A stretch of DNA of 64,000 nt from an uncultured Acidobacteriota bacterium (GTDB lineage: Bacteria > Acidobacteriota > Thermoanaerobaculia > UBA5066 > Gp7-AA6), in NCBI GenBank assembly GCA_963708395.1, contig CAVPSG010000002.1, forward strand, positions 1,804,401-1,868,400. Direction: 5' to 3'. Each line of letters opens with the position of its first letter. The first letter of the stretch is position 1. Below the pieces are notes generated by a model that searched no databases, had not been told where the DNA came from, and was given only the letters and a program-made list of their open reading frames with translations. A program made the position numbers and the translations under genes. This document shows, in pieces, positions 5,790-43,189 of the stretch.

Positions 5790-6696
5790 ATGCGGACCGT
5801 GATCGAAAGCGTCCCGAACATTTCCGAGGGGCGCGACCGCGTCCGCGTGGAGGAAATCGCCGCCGCCGTGCGCGCCGTTCCGGGGACGCGGCTCCTCGGC
5901 GTATCCTCCGACTCTTCGCACAACCGGAGTGTCCTGACGCTCGTGGGCGACGCGGCCGGCGTCGCGGCGGCGATTCGGGCCCTCTTCGAGGCGGCGCTTC
6001 CGCGCATCGATCTGACGAAGCACTCGGGCGAGCATCCGCGCATGGGCGCCGTGGACGTCGTCCCGTTCATCCCGATCCGCGGCGCGACGGTCGAGCAGTG
6101 CGTCGCGCTCTCGCGCCGAGGTCGGCGCCGAGATCGCCGAGCGGTTCGGCGTGCCGGTGTATCTCTACGAGGACTCGGCGTCCTCGGACCGCCGGCGCAA
6201 CCTGGCCGACATCCGCAAGGGCGAGTTCGAGGGCTTCGCCGAGAAGATGAAGGACGCCGGATGGAAGCCCGACTTCGGGCCCGACCGCCCGCACGCAACG
6301 GCCGGCGTCGTCGCCGTGGGCGCGCGCGCGCCGCTGATCGCCTACAACATCAACCTCGGAACGCGCGATCTCGCCGTGGCCGACCGCATTGCGAAGGCGA
6401 TCCGCCACGTCGGGGGCGGCTTCCGCTACGTGAAGGCGATGGGCGTCGAGCTCGCCGACCGTGGCCAGGTGCAGGTCTCGATCAACATGACGAACTACCG
6501 GAAGACGCCGCTCCACCGCGTCTTCGAGTGCGTCCGCTCCGAGGCCGAGCGCCACGGAGTGCCCGTCGTGGGCTCCGAGATCGTGGGCCTGACCCCGGCC
6601 GACGCGCTCTTTGCCGCCGCGGAGCACTACCTTCGAATCGAGAACTTCTCCGGCGATCAGGTGCTCGAGACGAAACTGCTCGAGGCGGAAGAGTAA
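5790..6696 (+). CDS. ftcD: Glutamate formimidoyltransferase (FTCD N-terminal domain family); frameshifted near 6113-6118 in this assembly
   Basis: MRTVIESVPNISEGRD..VLTLVGD.. matches the formiminotransferase N-terminus. It continues in the +1 frame as PVYLYEDSA..IRKGEFEGF..KPDFGP..LIAYNINL..QVSINMTNYRKTP..VGSEIVGL. One extra C in tcgcgcCgaggtc breaks the frame. Confidence 0.7.
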
Positions 6697-6705
6697 GAGA
6701 GAGAG

Positions 6706-7239
6706 TCATTCCGGCCCGGAGTGCCGGCTCCGCTCGGGTCCGAGAGTCTGGTCCGCTTGCGCGCTCCGCAGCATCGTGATTCTCGTGACGGGATGGAGCT
6801 CCATGTGCCGGTGACGCTTGTCCTGGACGTAGATGCCATCCGCTTCGATGTGATCGCCGACACGCGGCACCGGAATCTTGCTGCCGCACTTCCAGCAACG
6901 AAACACGAAGAATCGAAAAACGGGGTGCCGACAGACGATCTCGAGCTCCAACATGTCCTGGCCCAACCCTTCATAGTTCCTCTGATTCGCGAGGTGCGCG
7001 TACTCCGGGTCGAGTCTCAGGTACACGATCGCGTCTCCGTCGAGGACGTAGCGCGCGTCGGTGACGATGCCGCGCAGGGTGATGCAAGGCTCCTGAATGA
7101 CGAGCCGCTGCGGCGAATAGACGCATTGCCACCAGTTGCCTTCGCACTCTCCCGGCACGGTTTGGGCGCGGGATGCAACGCACTCGGCGGAGCAAACCGA
7201 GACGACCACCAGGATGAGTCGAGTCAGCCGCCGAGGCAC
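6706..7239 (-). CDS. Secreted Cys-rich hypothetical protein
   Basis: Signal peptide MPRRLTRLILVVVSVCSAECVASRA, then a 150-aa domain with at least 8 Cys. No family recognised. Confidence 0.45.
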   Translation of the reverse strand: MPRRLTRLILVVVSVCSAECVASRAQTVPGECEGNWWQCVYSPQRLVIQEPCITLRGIVTDARYVLDGDAIVYLRLDPEYAHLANQRNYEGLGQDMLELEIVCRHPVFRFFVFRCWKCGSKIPVPRVGDHIEADGIYVQDKRHRHMELHPVTRITMLRSAQADQTLGPERSRHSGPE

Positions 7240-36242: not shown

Positions 36243-36318
36243 GGGCCGTTAGCTCAATTGGTAGAGCAAGAGACTCTTAATCTCTAGGTTGTAGGTTCGA
36301 GTCCTACACGGCTCACCA
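36243..36318 (+). tRNA. tRNA-Lys (anticodon CUU)
   Basis: Hand fold: acceptor GGGCCGT/ACGGCTC, D-arm GCTC-AATTGGTA-GAGC, anticodon stem AGAGA/TCTCT with loop CTCTTAA (anticodon CTT), T-arm GTAGG-TTCGAGT-CCTAC, encoded CCA. Confidence 0.85.
36286..36318 (+). repeat. attL-like direct repeat (3' end of tRNA-Lys)
   Basis: AGGTTGTAGGTTCGAGTCCTACACGGCTCACCA. Confidence 0.55.
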
Positions 36319-36761
36319 CAATTCCCTCGACAGGCGAGCAAATTGTGACCTCCCGAGGCGAGATTGTGACCTCCCGGGATTCGCGCTTCCTTCACGACGG
36401 AGCCCCCATCGAGTCCGCGCGACCAGACCGCGCCCGCGTTCGACCGTTGCCTGACGCGCGGCCGCGGCCATCGCCTGCCCGATGAGCAGCGCGATCGAAT
36501 AGACCGAGTTCATGCCGCGGGAGTGGGCGAGGAGGGTCGAAATCTGGGCGTTCGGACGGTTTGTTGGTAGAGCTCCTCTACGAGTTCGGCTCTCTGATTG
36601 CGGGCGCGACGCTTTCGCCCGGATCGCCCTGACTCGCCTGGCGAGGACCTTCCCGAACTTGTGTTCCACTTTCGCTACCGCCTTCTGGTGGGCCCGCCGC
36701 CGGGTTCTCCGACTCCTGATTTGGCGGGGCGTGCTCTCACTTGGCCGGTTCTGGGCATATG

Positions 36762-37127
36762 CTAGGCCTCTCCGGACATCTTGTCGGCAGCGAGCAGCGA
36801 CGTGTTCCCGCCGAGCGCGACCGTCCGACGCTTCAACTCGGGGGTCCAGTCCTCCTCCGGATGGCTGAAGGCTTGGGGCTCGTCGTAGGCGTTCACCATT
36901 CCGACACGCGTGCATCCCTTCACCATCTCCGGATTTACCGTCATCGTGAGGGCTTTCGCCTTCTGCGAGTCCTCGTAATCCTTGTGCCACTTCTCGACCC
37001 GACGCTCCTCCTGGAGCTTCTGGCTCTGCGACGGCGTCGTCGAGCACCCGCCCAGACAGAGACCAAAGCCGAGACCGAGGACCTCAGCCGCGGCAGTGAA
37101 CCGTCTTCCCGTCCGCGCTCGCAGCAT
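36762..37127 (-). CDS. Small lipoprotein (island cargo)
   Basis: MLRARTGRRFTAAAEVLGLGFGLCLGGCSTTP.. has a lipobox L-G-G-C; 121 aa. This is the C-terminal part of track ORF 36762..37424. Confidence 0.45.
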   Translation of the reverse strand: MLRARTGRRFTAAAEVLGLGFGLCLGGCSTTPSQSQKLQEERRVEKWHKDYEDSQKAKALTMTVNPEMVKGCTRVGMVNAYDEPQAFSHPEEDWTPELKRRTVALGGNTSLLAADKMSGEA

Positions 37128-37144
37128 CGCGCTCAGACGTCCTC

Positions 37145-37524
37145 TTACTTCCGCTTCTTGAAAGCGACGGCGCCCCGTTTGGCGAAACGAGAGGTTCGAC
37201 GGGCTGGCATTCTGCCGCCGCCGCCGGCCGCAGCGAGAATAGCCGGGACCCTCGGCAACTGTGCCCGGGCGATCGCCAGGTCGTGCATCGCCTGGAGGTT
37301 CATCCAGAACTCCGGGTAGTCCCGAGCGCGGCGCCAAACAGGATTGCAGTCTCGGGCGTGACTCCGCGCTTTCCAGTGGCGACCTCGTTAACCCGCTGAG
37401 TGGGAACGCCGAGGTGCGCTGCAAAGGTTACCTGCGCGATTCCGCGCGGCTTCAGAAACTCCTCGACTAGCATCTCTCCCGGATGCGTGGGGATCCGGTC
37501 GGTTGGCAGCATTTTGACAACCAC
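37145..37524 (-). CDS. higA: HigA-type antitoxin (XRE-family HTH); 1-nt frameshift near 37300
   Basis: MVVKMLPTDRIPTHPGEMLVEEFLKPRGIAQVTFAAHLGVPTQRVNEVATGKRGVTPETAILFGAALGTT then, after a missing C in actaccCggag, PEFWMNLQAMHDLAIARAQL... Confidence 0.6.
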
Positions 37525-37537
37525 CCTTTCTGCTGAC

Positions 37538-37828
37538 TCAGTGATAGTCGGTCAGCCTGACTTCCGCGGCGCCGGACTTATCCCATCGGAAAACGATCCG
37601 CCACTGATCGTTCACCCTGACGCTGTGAAACCCCGCCAGGGCGCCCTTCAAAGCCTCGAGCCTGTTGCCCGGTAGCGCCGCCAGATCCGACAGCTCGGCC
37701 GCGGCGTGGATAGCGTCGAGCTTCCGGAACGCGCCTTTCAGGACATCTGGACCGAACTTTCGAGCTCGCGCCGAAGCTAACCCGTTCCAGACGTCCTCCG
37801 TCGCCGCGTCACCAAAAGACGTGATCAC
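37538..37828 (-). CDS. higB: HigB-type (RelE/ParE superfamily) toxin
   Basis: (V)ITSFGDAATEDVWNG....FGPDVLKGAFRKLDAIHAAAELSDLAALPGNRLEALKG...WRIVFRWDKSGAAEVRLTDYH (HigB layout: TE..WNG, RL..L, WRI.F). GTG at 37828; an alternative ATG at 37882 is possible. Confidence 0.6.
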   Translation of the reverse strand: MITSFGDAATEDVWNGLASARARKFGPDVLKGAFRKLDAIHAAAELSDLAALPGNRLEALKGALAGFHSVRVNDQWRIVFRWDKSGAAEVRLTDYH

Positions 37829-37844
37829 GGATGGGCATAATACA

Positions 37845-37865
37845 CGAATACCGTGTATTCGTGCA
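37845..37865. promoter_or_regulatory. Perfect 9-bp inverted repeat (CACGAATAC-cgt-GTATTCGTG) directly upstream of higB; candidate autoregulatory operator
   Basis: Read directly from the sequence. Position is consistent with TA-operon operators. Confidence 0.35.
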
Positions 37866-38232
37866 ATCTGGCCTCTCGGCACCCCTTCTCCAGACCGGTC
37901 TGGGGAACTGCTGCGCCCCCGCGCTGAGCGACGCTAGGAGGGTGCCATCGCGACAGCCAGGAGCGCGGGGTTCCTCGTCATTGAGGGCGGCCGACGTAGG
38001 GCAATTCTATGTCCGGCTGGGGGCGTGGAATTCACCCCAGAACGCGAGCACGAGGGGAGAAACGTAACCCGGTCGCCTCGTGTCCGAGCCTTTAGTCCCG
38101 CTCGAGTTTAGTCCAGACGTCCATGGCCGCGGCACCGGCGTCGGCCTTGATGCGATCTCCTGCTTTGGGCGGGCCGGCGAGCCACGAATCAGTCGGCTGG
38201 ATTGTCCGGAAACGGGCTGAGGGGAATGGGTC

Positions 38233-39411
38233 TCATGCGAGCTTCTTGGCGAGTTGTTCTTCGAGGATTTCCTGGACGGTGAGAGGAATGATGATCCTCC
38301 CGGATTTCCGGAAGAACCCATCAACCTCCTTGAGTGCGTCGCTCGTGAAATCGAAGGCCACGAAAAATCCCTTCTTGGGGTTCTCCCGGGTCATCGCAGC
38401 CTCGAAGGAGTCAATTTCTGGACGTCCCACCCGATCCTTTTGCTTTACCTGGACCGGGTACCACTCATCCATGAAGTCGAGTCCAGCAGTTTCGCCTTCC
38501 TTGACCTCGCTCGTGGGAGCGGCGCCCACGGGAAACACTCGCCCGTCGATCCCCATGTCGCCGACCTGCACTTTGTTTGGAATCCCGCCGATGGCGATCA
38601 CGGCCCAATTCTCGAACTCGAACGGAGGGATCTTCCGCAGCTGATCCACGGACCATGGGAGGTCGCGCACGACGAAACCCCGCCCAATCTTCCAGAGCTT
38701 CTCGTCTTCCCGGAGCGTTGTCTCGCCCCGTAGGCGCTTCGCCATGACCCGGCAAGCCGTTGGGGATACGTCGATCCCGATCCATTGACGCTTATGCCTC
38801 TCGGCAGCTAGCAAAGCCGTGCCGCAGCCGCAGAACGCATCGAGAACAATGTCGTTTTCGTTTCTGCTTGCTTGAATGATTCGTTCCAGCAACGGTAGAG
38901 GCTTCTGCGTAGGGTAGCCGAGCGACTCGGCTGCCTGGCTGTTGATTGGCGGAATGTCGTCCCACAGGTTTTGGAGCGCGGGACCTGCTGACTCGTCGAG
39001 GTACATTTTTAGGCGCAATTGGCCGCCAGGCTTCGCAGGGAAATGAAGCCGGTTCTCTCGATCGTACTTCTCCATGCGGTCTCGGTCGCATGACCATCCA
39101 TTCGGATGTGGCTCATAGGTGATGCCGTTGCTAGCCTTGAAGGAATAGCGGAGGTTTGGTCGCTTTCCCGGATTCCGAAGCGTCACGGACTGCCAGTTTC
39201 GGCCGTCCGCGTCTCGATAGTTGAATCTCCGCTCAACGTACTCCGGCTCAAAACTCCCATGAGTCTGGTTCCACGTGTAGTCTGCCGAGTGCACGTAGTA
39301 GAAAATACTGTCGGTGATCGCCCCGAAACGTCTTCCAGCGTTCCCGTGAGCAAGACCCTCGCAGATCGGGCGATTGTGGGCTCCTGACCCCGGTTTGTGC
39401 GCTCCCGCCAC
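38233..39411 (-). CDS. DNA methyltransferase (N4/N6 beta-class, C-terminal half with motif I) fused to an Mrr-like PD-(D/E)xK restriction-endonuclease domain; N-terminal region disrupted
   Basis: ..GYPTQKPLPLLERIIQASRNENDIVLDAFCGCGTALLAAERHKRQWIGIDVS (HPTQKP/DPFxGSGT-type motifs). C-terminal GDMGIDG..EWYPVQVKQK..GFFVAFDFTSDA is an Mrr_cat-like D..(E/Q)xK core. The expected upstream DPPY/NPPY motif was not found in any frame; there are three frame changes within 39250..39420. Confidence 0.55.
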   Translation of the reverse strand: MAGAHKPGSGAHNRPICEGLAHGNAGRRFGAITDSIFYYVHSADYTWNQTHGSFEPEYVERRFNYRDADGRNWQSVTLRNPGKRPNLRYSFKASNGITYEPHPNGWSCDRDRMEKYDRENRLHFPAKPGGQLRLKMYLDESAGPALQNLWDDIPPINSQAAESLGYPTQKPLPLLERIIQASRNENDIVLDAFCGCGTALLAAERHKRQWIGIDVSPTACRVMAKRLRGETTLREDEKLWKIGRGFVVRDLPWSVDQLRKIPPFEFENWAVIAIGGIPNKVQVGDMGIDGRVFPVGAAPTSEVKEGETAGLDFMDEWYPVQVKQKDRVGRPEIDSFEAAMTRENPKKGFFVAFDFTSDALKEVDGFFRKSGRIIIPLTVQEILEEQLAKKLA

Positions 39412-40010
39412 ATGCGGTCGCCGCCTCCGCCTCGTCGACGGACTCCCGCGAGATCACGGTGAGGCCCGCGCGCTTCTCGGCAGCCCCCTCGCGCGCGGCC
39501 GCCTCCATCGCCTTGCCGACGTTCCGGGCGAGGAGGTCGTGGTCCGTGGTCGACAAACACGAGCCCGAGGGCACGGGGACGCAGGGCGCACAGGGCGAAC
39601 GCCTCGACGAAGTCAGCGAACGCGGGCCACGTCTCCCGGAGCTTCTCGATGATCTTCTCGATCTCGGGCCACGGGACGTATTTCTTGACGAGCTTCTTCC
39701 TCTTCGGAGCCTTCTGGGACTTCTTTCCGAGCCGTTTGATCTCGGGGACCGCGATGATCGCGTGACCCCGCTTCGCGTCCCGGAGGACGGAGAGCAGGAG
39801 GGAGACTTCGCCCTTGATCGTCTTCGTGACGACGCCGTCAGAGATCCGGGCGTTCCGGTACGCCTTGATGGTGTCCTCGGCCACGAACGCAGTGAGCCTG
39901 CCGATTCCGGTGCGTTCACAGATGCGGTCGAGCTTGTACCCGGCCCGGAGAGCCCACGCTGCACCCGCGTGGGCCTTGATCTCCGCGACGTCCCCTGCAC
40001 GCGGATGTTA
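39412..40010 (-). pseudogene. Tyrosine-recombinase N-terminal fragment (SAM-like core-binding domain plus start of catalytic domain), truncated or frameshifted
   Basis: GTG-initiated frame: VAEIKAHAGAAWALRAGYKLDRICERTGIGRLTAFVAEDTIKAYRNARISDGVVTKTIKGEVSLLLSVLRDAKRGHAII..KKYVPWPEIEKIIEKLRETWPAFADFVEAFALCALRPRALGLVFVDH. The frame is lost after ~150 aa and no RHR-Y catalytic part follows. Confidence 0.35.
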
Positions 40011-40089
40011 GGCGGACGCACTCGGATGCCCTCAAGATTGCAACCTCGATTGCGATGACCCAGAGTCGAAACATCGCCCAACCGGGGTC

Positions 40090-41187
40090 CTACGGCGTCG
40101 GAGTCGGGGTCGGGGTCGGGGTTTCTCGAACAATCCGAACCGCCCCCCGAGCTCGTTTCGAAAGCACAACAGGCATTCGCGGATACGGTACCGATGGTGT
40201 GGGCGTCGCAGATGTGGACTCTCCAGGGTCCAGCCGACCGATCTGGTTGCTACGGAATTGCGTAAACCAGAGGTTGCCATCTGGACCCGCCGCGATACCG
40301 TTAAGTCCGCTGTCGCCCGTGGGGATCGTGAACTCAGTGATCGTGCCGGCGGGGGTGATCCGGCCGATCTTGTTAGCCGCGTACTCTGTGAACCAGATGG
40401 CGCCGTCGGGCCCGGCCGCGATCCCGTAAGGTGCGCCGCCGGCCGCGAACTCGGTAATCGTGCCGGCCGTGGTGATCCGCCCGATCTTGTTGCCGAGATA
40501 CTCTGTGAACCAGAGGGCGCCGTCGGGCCCGGCCGCGATCTCGTAAGGTCTGCTGCCGGCCGTGGGGATCGCGAACTCGGTAATCGTGCCGGCCGTGGTG
40601 ATCCGCCCGATCTTGCTTACATTGTCTTCAGTAAACCAGAGGTTGCCGTCCGGACCTGCCGCGATGCCGTTAGGTCCGCTGACGGGTGTGGGGATCGTGA
40701 ACTCGGTAAACGCGCCGGCGGTCGTGATCCGCCCGATTTTGTTGACCCGGTCTTTGGTAAACCAGAGGTTGCCATCAGGGCCCGCCGCGATACGGTAAGG
40801 CGCGCCGGCCGTGGGAGTCGCGAACTCGGTAATCGTGCCGGCCGTGGTGATCCGCCCGATCTTGTTGCGATCAAATTCCGCAAACCAGAGATTGCCATCA
40901 TGGCCCGCCGCGATACCCCAAGGTCCGCTGCCGCCCGTGGGAATCGTGAACTCGGTAATCGTGCCGGCCGTGGTGATCCGCCCGATCTTATTGCCGAGAT
41001 ACTCTGTGAACCAGAGGGCGCCGTCGGGCCCGGCCGCGATCCCGTAAGGGGAACTCCCGGCTGTCGGGATCGGGAACTCGGTGATCATTTGGCTGCGAGC
41101 GATTCCGCCGAGGCACAGACCGACGACAGCGAGAATCAGTCGCGCGGCAGGTCCGCTGTAGATCCGGCGGGCCGTCTCGTCCTTCAC
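40090..41187 (-). CDS. Secreted seven-bladed beta-propeller protein with Vgb-lyase/NHL-like repeats and a C-terminal (Thr-Pro)n tail
   Basis: Signal peptide MKDETARRIYSGPAARLILAVVGLCLGGIA, then 7-8 repeats of ITEFxIPTxGSxPxGIAAGPDGxLWFTExxxNKIGRITTAG (the streptogramin B lyase Vgb-like repeat pattern), ending ..[11 protein letters not shown]. Confidence 0.55.
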   Translation of the reverse strand: MKDETARRIYSGPAARLILAVVGLCLGGIARSQMITEFPIPTAGSSPYGIAAGPDGALWFTEYLGNKIGRITTAGTITEFTIPTGGSGPWGIAAGHDGNLWFAEFDRNKIGRITTAGTITEFATPTAGAPYRIAAGPDGNLWFTKDRVNKIGRITTAGAFTEFTIPTPVSGPNGIAAGPDGNLWFTEDNVSKIGRITTAGTITEFAIPTAGSRPYEIAAGPDGALWFTEYLGNKIGRITTAGTITEFAAGGAPYGIAAGPDGAIWFTEYAANKIGRITPAGTITEFTIPTGDSGLNGIAAGPDGNLWFTQFRSNQIGRLDPGESTSATPTPSVPYPRMPVVLSKRARGAVRIVRETPTPTPTPTP

Positions 41188-41272
41188 AGCCTCATCTTCC
41201 CTAATGGATAGCGCGTCAGCGGCGAGCCGACCAAGCGAAGCGGGCAGCGAGGGACTTCGATGCGTGCGCGTT

Positions 41273-41830
41273 TCAGAAGCCTCCGACCGCAGGGGACGGC
41301 GCCTTTACGAGGTCGGGAAAGTGAGGAGACGTCACAACCTTTCTCAAGAGATCTTGAACCGCCGGCATGAGCGCCTGTGCGGTCTGATTGCAGGCAGTCT
41401 CACCGTAAAAGCTGCTCTTGTACTCGTAGTCTTCCGAGATCCGAAGCGATTGACCGTTCGAGGACTTCACGGTGAGGGCCAGGAGCCACCCGATGTCGAC
41501 GTGAAATCGATGGTCTCCAGATTTGCGGTCAGAGTCACGGGGCCGGTCGCGGAGAACGACTCGGCCAGCCTCAGGTCATCAACGAACGCCTTGCGGACGT
41601 AGTCCTCAAAGGTATCGCCGTCCGGAGTCTTGATCGGTCCGACAGCGCGACAGGTGATCTCCCGGCGGCCTGGCGGAGTCGCGGTAAACGGTCCGACGTT
41701 GATCTGCGGTTTCCCCAGCGCCCTCAGGGCGCTGACGTTGTCGACGGAGACCGCGTAGCGACTCGCCGCATAGGTGAAGCATCCGACGCAGCCCAGCAGG
41801 GCGACGAGGATAGCCAGATTTGAGCGATTC
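41273..41830 (-). CDS. Lipoprotein (island cargo); one frameshift near 41470
   Basis: TTG start gives (M)NRSNLAILVALLGCVGCFTYAASRYAVSVDN..TLTANLETIDFTSTSGGSWPSP, continuing in the next frame as KSSNGQSLRISEDYEYKSSFYGETACNQTAQALMPAVQDLL.. (track ORF 41273..41470). The ORF track merged the first part into the integrase ORF. Confidence 0.4.
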
Positions 41831-42119
41831 AACTGTGGATAGCTTATAGCTCCTCGGACCTGGCCTAGACCATGTCGGCGTCGATTCCCGAAGCGATCAC
41901 TGAGACATCGGGATTTCTCCTTGTCCCTTTCGGAACCTTCAGGGATTCCGCCGGTGATCGGCGGATCCGACTCGGGCCTTGTGGTCGCCGGCAAGAGCAG
42001 CGGTTCGACGGGGATCTCGGGCGCGCCCTTCTGGATCTCACGGCGGTCCCAGGGCGTTCGGACCCAGGGGAGCGCCAGTTCGCTCGCCTCTGGATTCGGT
42101 GGATCGAGCCGACCTTCAC

Positions 42120-43038
42120 CTAGCGCCACGTCGTCGCGACCGACCGATGGCGCATGAATGCTGCGAGGTCGAAGATCGGGAATTGCCGCTCGTAGAGGTG
42201 CGTGCAGCGCGAGTAACGCAAAACGTGCGGTGAGAGGTGGCGCCCCCGAGGCTCGATGCCGGCCGCCTCGACGCGCGCCTGCAGAATCGCAGCGAACTGA
42301 GCGGAGCTCACGCCCCGATCTTCGGGACCGCGGGGTGTCCCAATGCGAGGGAACAAAGCCGGATCGCGAACACCGGCAGACTCGAGCGCCATGAGGTGCG
42401 CCTGCAGGAGTTGACAGACGGTGTCGTCGAGCGCGAACACCTGCGGCTCTCGAGAACACTTGCTCTCGCGGATCACGAGGAGGGCTGGCCGGAGTGGATC
42501 TGGAGGTCGGACCGACGGAGACGACCGGGTTCCCCGCGCGGAGCGCGCATTGGTAAACGACCGCGACCATCGCGGAGTTGCATCCCTCGACGAGGTCGTG
42601 GATCCGCGAGCGCCGGTTGAACAGGACGGCCGGATCCTTTCGGCGCTGCGGGACCAGGGGGCGCTGCCAAAAGACGATGCGACCGATTTCCTCGCGCGAG
42701 AACACCGGGATGACGTCGCGCCGCTTTTCCTCGGGAGCCCGCGCGAGTCGCAGCGGGTTCTCCGGGATGTGCCCGCGGGACGCGAGGGACGAGTAGAAGG
42801 CTTTGAGTGCGGACATCCGGAGCCTCCGCGTATTCGGGGACCGCCGCGCGAGCGCCAAGCGGGCCATGTACGAGTCGGCGTCGCGGATCGTGACTGCCGC
42901 GAAGTTCTCGATCTCCATACGGCGCCGGAAGTCGGCGAGGGACTTGCGGTAGGCGACGACCGTCGACTCCGAGCGGCCGAGAACGTTGCTTAGGAAGGCG
43001 ACGAACTCCTCGACCAGGTTGGCAGGGGAGTCCGTCAT
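42120..43038 (-). pseudogene. int: Tyrosine integrase (XerC/D-like), disrupted: frameshift(s) near 42480-42540 and an in-frame TAG at the expected catalytic-Tyr codon
   Basis: N-terminus MTDSPANLVEEFVAFLSNVLGRSESTVVAYRKSLADF..ALKAFYSSLASRGHIPENP.. (core-binding). Catalytic part is in frame 42120..42476: LVIRESKCSREPQVFALDDTV..HVLRYSRCTHLYE..MRHRSVATTWR then TAG where RY(A/T)HL normally places the catalytic Tyr. Confidence 0.65.
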
Positions 43039-43156
43039 CGGGTCGCCTCTCTCGAGGCCGCCGTGTACACAAACTGTGATCTCCCGCCTGCCGCGGAGAT
43101 CCAGTTTCGGGCCTCAGGGCAATGCGAAATCGGGTGAATCGGGCAGGATGGCCGAG

Positions 43157-43189
43157 GGGTTGTATTTTCGAGTTTTACACGGCTCACCA
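43157..43189 (+). repeat. attR-like direct repeat
   Basis: GGGTTGTATTTTCGAGTTTTACACGGCTCACCA matches the tRNA 3' end at 28 of 33 positions; the last 14 nt are identical. Confidence 0.55.

Follow-up and report, generated by a model that had tools for sequence, protein, structure and literature searches.

Does a gene that couples part of a DNA methyltransferase to a nuclease domain, and that lies among toxin-antitoxin and integrase genes, still encode a working restriction-modification enzyme, or is it what remains of one? This question is raised by an open reading frame (ORF) at 38233..39411 (minus strand) of a 64-kb stretch of the genome of an uncultured Acidobacteriota bacterium (GenBank assembly GCA_963708395.1, contig CAVPSG010000002.1, positions 1,804,401 to 1,868,400), hereafter the window. 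In an earlier reading made from the letters of the DNA alone (the sequence-only reading), the ORF had been put forward as a candidate single-polypeptide restriction-modification enzyme or modification-dependent nuclease. Our analyses lead to another view, which we hold with considerable confidence: the ORF would be the 3' three-quarters of a horizontally acquired gene from a family of stand-alone proteins of ~495 amino acids (aa), dead for methylation and most likely a recent silent pseudogene. The value of the finding lies in intact homologues such as P0002 or P0009, not in the window copy.

One reading frame joins part of a methyltransferase to an Mrr-type nuclease domain

The ORF encodes 392 aa between a GTG start and a TGA stop (38233-38235), and the frame and all the peptides quoted from it in the sequence-only reading are present as described. 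Its 20 N-terminal codons (39352..39411) bear no homology to the family; they are followed, on the same minus strand, by a retained methyltransferase part (38722..39351), equivalent to residues ~125-334 of intact homologues, and by a linker with an Mrr_cat-type nuclease domain (38236..38721). The methyltransferase part contains the variable middle region (a putative target-recognition domain), the peptide GYPTQKP (38899-38919) and the S-adenosylmethionine (AdoMet)-binding motif I (FxGxG), present as FCGCGT inside VLDAFCGCGTAL at 38812-38847. The nuclease domain carries the three Mrr motifs, namely motif I PPFEFENW (38605-38628), motif II GDMGIDG (38542-38562) and motif III PVQVKQK (38437-38457), as well as GFFVAFDFTSDA at 38335-38370.

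Searches against Pfam placed both domains above their cut-offs (26.7 bits for N6_N4_Mtase, PF01555; 21 bits for Mrr_cat, PF04471). N6_N4_Mtase matched with an E value of 1.8e-22 and 80.9 bits, spanning only positions 92-219 of the 221 in the profile, and Mrr_cat scored 23.0 bits on the 392-aa ORF and 25.8 bits on its C-terminal 162 residues alone. The earlier proposal that a beta-class methyltransferase and an Mrr-type PD-(D/E)xK domain share a single frame was thus borne out. The solved beta-class methyltransferases M.BceJIV, M.MboIIA, DpnA, RsrI and CcrM align to the GYPTQKP...FCGCGT region only, and the catalytic motif IV, (D/N/S)PP(Y/F), was found neither in the ORF nor in any of the six frames of the window. 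The top homologues of the ORF reach E values of 1e-200, far above chance. The ORF appears, by its profile and homologue matches, to be a fragment of a member of the beta-class amino-methyltransferases, with a genuine Mrr_cat domain, and not a functional member of that class. That the two halves might be separate genes was ruled out, since the frame is unbroken in the window and in every complete homologue examined.

The first 124 codons are missing upstream of a sharp junction

The best homologues, 490-512 aa in length, share 60-79% identity with the ORF over 95% of the query and carry an extra ~124 N-terminal residues with IDPPFNSNRNYEVFWGE, which is motif IV (DPPF) of a beta-class amino-methyltransferase; in the intact homologue P0002, Pfam recognizes N6_N4_Mtase profile positions 1-219 plus Mrr_cat. 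We searched the window by tblastn with five intact homologues for the missing N-terminus. Residues 124/125 to the end align to 39351..38236 in a single frame (P0002, P0009), and residues 1-124 gave nothing above noise in any of the six frames of the entire window. DNA identity to the closest locus likewise begins exactly at 39351. As a control, the same test recovered a mis-called start in one related locus (L087) and a frameshifted N-terminus in another (L088), and therefore it would have detected hidden 5' codons in the window. Hence, the absence of the N-terminal methyltransferase part with its DPPY/F motif, as recognized in the sequence-only reading, was confirmed (homology to the ~494-aa relatives begins at residue 125, position 39351), and the explanation offered there, that assembly indels hide the 5' part, was ruled out by the tblastn blank across the window. 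Comparison of the upstream segment with the loci of relatives by tblastx returned only compositional noise, in one high-GC locus, and a promoter-like site was not found upstream of the remnant, by a weak test.

The retained 372 codons deviate from the family at 2 of the 110 columns that are conserved at ≥95%, the average among intact members being 2.2. The composition of the remnant (GC content 57.6%; GC content at third codon positions, GC3, 0.70) departs from that of the host genes (GC3 0.91) and marks it as being, in all appearance, of foreign origin and horizontally acquired. Given the few departures at conserved columns together with this foreign composition, both the acquisition and the truncation look recent.

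We propose that the first ~124 codons, which encode motif IV and the conserved N-terminal lobe, would have been lost together with any preceding promoter through a deletion or rearrangement joined at 39351/39352, and that the remainder would then have abutted an integrase fragment within a decaying 6.9-kb tRNA-Lys island. Integrases also adjoin the P0002 and P0105 genes, and at the P0002 locus an intact integrase gene precedes the intact methyltransferase gene by 56 bp, both having the same orientation. These integrases are both unrelated to the window fragment, and the notion of one and the same integrase beside the close homologues was accordingly rejected; the layout of the window would nevertheless fit a deletion running from inside an integrase gene of the P0002 type into the methyltransferase gene. 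An integrase-mediated origin of the truncation is possible. Because motif IV and the conserved N-terminal lobe are gone, the remnant would be unable to methylate DNA, and with its promoter lost it is probably silent; silence is also favored by the consideration that an active restriction nuclease expressed without methylation would be harmful. The window copy, deprived of 124 N-terminal residues including the DPPF motif, cannot be the working restriction-modification enzyme that had been suggested. We would annotate this apparently dead remnant as a pseudogene, not as a methyltransferase or defense gene; the locus is a record of how a small tRNA-Lys island decays.

The parent family is abundant and stands alone

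A search of 5.8 billion proteins yielded 7,342 homologues at E ≤1e-5. The fusion is encoded by at least 562 species genomes (one genome per species scanned), and those listed are mostly metagenome-assembled genomes (MAGs) of Acidobacteriota, Planctomycetota and Verrucomicrobiota; when the C-terminal domain by itself was used as query in an exhaustive phmmer search, 1,233 clusters at 50% identity were obtained. The description of the fusion as uncommon is not compatible with these counts of more than 7,300 proteins. C-terminal domains matching Mrr_cat were found in 23 of 24 family members. We scanned ten more distant matches for domains: an entire N6_N4_Mtase domain precedes Mrr_cat in the three that are complete (P0158, P0256, P0263), part of one is present in five shorter proteins, and Mrr_cat alone was detected in the other two (P0123, P0142). 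The methyltransferase-Mrr fusion thus appears, from its distribution, to be old, obligate and common.

Clustering of neighboring ORFs revealed no conserved neighbor gene: any family within 4 kb is common to at most 4 of the 80 loci, and a conserved partner (Res, a second methyltransferase or a controller) was sought in these 80 loci and not found. The gene therefore stands alone. The contexts of single close homologues are varied and include a BrnTA module, a ParE toxin, integrases, an IS1595 transposase and a separate Mrr_cat protein. A systematic association of the family with tRNA islands was also rejected: of 60 loci, just 7 have a tRNA gene at a distance of up to 6 kb, roughly as many as chance would give at one tRNA gene per ~100 kb, our rough estimate of their density. 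Family members are annotated merely as 'adenine-specific methyltransferase', and no published study of the methyltransferase-Mrr architecture was found in the literature. The parent family is very abundant in soil and sediment bacteria, always solitary, with the catalytic residues of both the methyltransferase and the Mrr nuclease kept, and apparently without a characterized member, which makes it a cheap and well-defined target in the search for a new restriction-modification architecture or new specificities.

The intact protein combines a Mod-like methyltransferase with an Mrr catalytic core

The AlphaFold model of full-length P0002 has a predicted local distance difference test score (pLDDT) of 82.8, and the structures closest to it are EcoP15I Mod, Helicobacter Mod, M.MboIIA, M.BceJIV, M.RsrI and CcrM; the methyltransferase thus resembles Mod and contains a variable insert. 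This insert (residues ~136-262) is the least conserved portion of the protein and is probably a target-recognition domain. The DPPF form of motif IV in the family suggests N6-adenine specificity.

The Mrr family is recognized by three motifs, a first-helix glutamate (I), D-x-G-(I/V)-D (II) and Q-x-K (III), and in LlaGI the residues D74, D78 and K94 are needed for cleavage (PMC2790908). In the family studied here, the residues of FEFENW, GDMGIDG and QVKQ do not vary among the 86 aligned sequences, and each of the three Mrr motifs is kept in 54-59 of the 60 cluster representatives that span them. The AlphaFold model of the nuclease domain has a mean pLDDT of 76.5, its C-terminal alpha/beta half being confident. 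With Foldseek, this model matched proteins of restriction-endonuclease-like fold (the Rpb5 N-domain, EcoT38I and FokI) over ~70 aligned residues with E values from 5e-4 to 3e-2; no solved structure was found as a sequence relative of the C-terminal domain. When PADLOC was applied, the full protein matched methyltransferase models only and the C-terminal domain gave only weak mREase_IV and PDC-S02 matches, so that an assignment to Shedu-type or other known defense nucleases was unsupported. Shedu is a different nuclease family.

The label of modification-dependent nuclease is likewise unsupported, as the Mrr catalytic domain is present alone and the N-terminal methyl-DNA reader of Mrr is absent; neither the ORF nor the full-length homologues gave a match to a methyl-DNA-binding (winged-helix) domain. 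In Type ISP enzymes, ordinary restriction is carried out by this same catalytic module (PMC2790908). In an intact family member, the methyltransferase module would recognize a specific site and methylate it with AdoMet, and the fused Mrr nuclease would cut DNA at or near unmethylated sites; one recognition module would thus serve both methylation and Mrr-type cleavage, and no partner gene would be needed. We favor this reading because the gene is solitary and the catalytic residues are invariant, and the intact family is most likely one of single-chain restriction-modification enzymes. The more specific proposal, that the family embodies an unrecognized restriction-modification architecture in which a Mod-like beta-class adenine methyltransferase carries a C-terminal Mrr nuclease and operates with neither helicase nor partner, is advanced tentatively, with the odds still against it.

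Relation to known restriction-modification systems

The best sequence and fold matches of the family are Type III Mod and Type II beta-class N6-adenine methyltransferases (EcoP15I Mod, M.MboIIA, M.RsrI, M.BceJIV, CcrM), which show the same permuted order, motif IV DPPF being N-terminal and motif I FxGxG lying toward the C-terminal end of the domain, and the same placement of a variable insert between two lobes. Unlike the family, these enzymes have no fused nuclease domain, and Type III Mod acts with a separate Res helicase-nuclease, whereas the family gene lacks a conserved partner; an adjacent res gene was not found in the window, nor was any recurring neighbor seen in more than 4 of the 80 loci. 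The window copy differs further from these methyltransferases in that the entire N-terminal lobe is missing.

With Mrr and the nuclease domain of the Type ISP enzymes LlaGI and LlaBIII the family shares the three diagnostic motifs, in addition to the Mrr_cat match above cut-off. However, Mrr proper has an N-terminal methyl-DNA-binding domain and no methyltransferase, whereas the N-terminus of the family is a methyltransferase, and LlaGI consists of an N-terminal nuclease, a superfamily 2 (SF2) helicase motor and a gamma-class methyltransferase, in contrast to the C-terminal nuclease and beta-class methyltransferase of the family. A helicase domain was found in none of the family members scanned. 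Moreover, the loop between motifs II and III comprises 32 residues in the family, about twice the 14-16 residues of the Mrr/LlaGI-type domain.

Type IIG/IIC enzymes (MmeI, BpuSI, Eco57I), in which one polypeptide from a stand-alone gene unites an amino-methyltransferase with a PD-(D/E)xK nuclease, provide the working model for the intact family. Characterized members run from an N-terminal nuclease through a gamma-class methyltransferase to a C-terminal recognition domain (PMC3185434, PMC2582602); in the intact family this order is reversed and the methyltransferase is beta-class. The window copy, with its incomplete methyltransferase, falls short of this single-chain composition, whereas intact homologues have the full set of domains. 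The nearest statement in the literature concerns Shedu nucleases fused to N6_N4_Mtase, for which a mode of action like that of Type II restriction-modification systems was proposed (PMC10441436). Collectively, the remnant belongs neither to Mrr/Type IV, because it has no reader domain, nor to Type ISP, because it has no helicase and the wrong methyltransferase class, nor to Type III, because there is no Res, nor to canonical Type IIG, because of its opposite order and beta-class methyltransferase.

Alternative explanations

Several observations weigh against our interpretation, of the family as well as of the remnant, and they are best considered with the alternatives that they favor. At the level of the family, the main rival is that the intact protein is an orphan (solitary) methyltransferase in which the Mrr-like module is non-catalytic and serves DNA binding or oligomerization. 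We regard this as a serious contender, if somewhat short of an even chance. The lack of a partner gene in the 80 loci suits an orphan enzyme as well, the defense models of PADLOC match the methyltransferase part only, and the motif II hairpin of the nuclease domain, where the catalytic residues lie, is poorly predicted by AlphaFold (pLDDT <50). No published test of nuclease or methyltransferase activity of the family was found in the literature. Furthermore, homologues occur in temperate Streptomyces phages, and phage-encoded methyltransferases usually serve self-protection. Protein gp48 of the Streptomyces phage Hippo (Likavirus; 547 aa, L082 1840-3483) is 42% identical to P0002 over 444 aa, and a homologue of it is also present in 21 other Streptomyces phages (temperate, those listed having genomes of ~51 kb), annotated as methyltransferase or DNA methylase. 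Like the family, these Likavirus proteins combine N6_N4_Mtase with a C-terminal Mrr_cat/NA-iREase1 domain; unlike it, they are phage-borne, with an adjacent serine integrase. In the phage homologue, motif III is S-V-K and not Q-V-K, a serine replacing the glutamine, and the domain scores best against Pfam NA-iREase1 ('inactive REase', 2.8e-15). The phage branch thus seems to fit a non-catalytic role of the nuclease-like domain, at least there. On the other side stands the conservation of the glutamate, D-x-G-I-D and Q-x-K, which is complete in the 86 close homologues and nearly so in the 60 distant representatives; this is hard to explain without catalysis and therefore counts against an orphan methyltransferase, and the same residues are essential for cleavage by LlaGI (PMC2790908).

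At the level of the remnant, the truncated ORF might still be expressed and have a function of its own, e.g., as a nuclease acting by itself with the target-recognition region and the AdoMet-binding half of the methyltransferase still attached. The frame is open over 392 codons from a GTG start, conserved positions within the retained 372 codons have not accumulated extra substitutions, and the nuclease motifs are intact, so that a truncated protein may be produced; moreover, a 280-aa product that is 100% identical (P0014, NCBI/ENA, starting at Met113) suggests that the source annotation calls the gene. We nevertheless judge a functional product improbable. The beta-class fold is split, and with the N-terminal lobe and motif IV lost its correct folding would be doubtful; the weak test revealed no promoter-like site upstream. 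The absence of decay is equally well explained by a recent truncation, in agreement with the un-ameliorated GC3, and the surrounding island is itself decaying, with a frameshifted higA gene and two broken integrases. The preferred interpretation of a recent silent pseudogene accounts for the same features.

Very improbable, finally, is that the truncation arose in assembly, by mis-joining or indels, from a gene that is intact in the real genome: higA is indeed disrupted by a CCC homopolymer that is altered by 1 nt, as is typical of long-read errors, and related metagenome assemblies contain many frameshift-split genes, but the 124 missing residues occur in none of the six frames, which excludes indels, the DNA homology ends sharply at 39351, and the uninterrupted host ORFs on both sides of the island argue for a low indel rate, so that a chimeric join at 39351 is the sole type of artefact left.

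The remnant lies on a decaying tRNA-Lys island

The tRNA-Lys(CTT) gene (36243..36318, plus strand) ends in a 32-nt segment (36287-36318) that forms the left copy of a direct repeat, and the right copy, with 28 of 32 positions identical, lies at 43158..43189 (plus strand). The ~6.9 kb that these copies delimit (36319..43189) have a GC content of 63.3%, as compared with 68.6% in the remaining window. With the tRNA 3'-end repeat at the far boundary, integrase genes and deviant composition all found, this segment is a tRNA-targeting integrative island; the location of the ORF on an island, already proposed in the sequence-only reading, was in this way supported. From left to right, the island contains ORFs without assignment, HigA, HigB, the methyltransferase-Mrr remnant, an integrase fragment, a Vgb-lyase gene and a split integrase.

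Directly downstream of the remnant lies the toxin-antitoxin module that the sequence-only reading had pointed out, and it is a HigBA type II module, with a HigB-like toxin gene (37538..37882, minus strand; Pfam 2.3e-15) followed by a helix-turn-helix (HTH) HigA antitoxin gene (37145..37524, minus strand; TIGR02607 4.5e-17). The higB gene appears intact; higA is frameshifted at a CCC run near 37310, its last ~18 conserved residues (PEFWMNLQAMHDL...) falling in another frame. If the higA lesion is real, the toxin is paired with an impaired antitoxin; otherwise the lesion reflects an error in sequencing the homopolymer.

Upstream of the remnant, a tyrosine integrase N-terminal fragment (39549..40007, minus strand) covers the core-binding domain and the beginning of the catalytic one, the rest of which is absent. 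Its assignment comes solely from a PHROG match (phrog_1 integrase, E 1e-7), with no Pfam match and no close homologues found; the fragment predicted earlier was thus recovered, in a single frame (39549-40007) and not in shifting ones. A second tyrosine integrase (42120..43038, minus strand), which adjoins the right repeat and was recognized by Pfam, is split over two frames, of which the 43038 frame encodes the SAM-like N-domain and the 42476-42120 frame the catalytic domain. On either side of the island, host ORFs of 2.1-2.7 kb run without interruption, and the lesions of the island therefore look like real decay and not like the product of a generally error-ridden assembly, the homopolymer lesion of higA possibly being a sequencing error.

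Additional observations on the island and on related loci

Within the island, the Vgb-lyase-family gene (40090-41187, minus strand; Pfam E 2e-122) encodes a 365-aa beta-propeller protein with five internal repeats of ~246 nt followed by a C-terminal tail. The C-terminal part of ORF 36762-37424 (~36762-37130, minus strand) resembles a small lipoprotein, with a lipobox-like signal LGLGFGLCLGGCSTT, and gave no Pfam or PHROG match. Just inside the left end of the island, the 14-mer ATTGTGACCTCCCG is present twice, 21 nt apart (36342-36376), and a copy matching at 12 of 14 positions lies just inside the right end (43073-43086); these copies are candidate arm-type binding sites of an integrase.

Among the loci of the family, type II toxin-antitoxin genes were seen by eye beside the fusion gene in four, namely BrnTA in L001 and ParE in L088 (both by Pfam), a RelE/ParE-like ORF in L007 (by eye) and HigBA in the window. 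In L001 and L088, housekeeping genes (transketolase, dehydroquinate (DHQ) synthase, pyruvate dehydrogenase (PDH) E1) are broken into several called genes, which indicates that Microflora-Danica-type assemblies such as these have frequent indel errors. Some genomes have two copies of the fusion gene, on one contig (L054 and L079) or in one MAG (L067 and L070). Finally, at locus L086 a separate 395-aa Mrr_cat protein (5798-6985) is encoded 16 bp upstream of the fusion gene of P0001, the closest homologue, possibly forming a two-nuclease arrangement.

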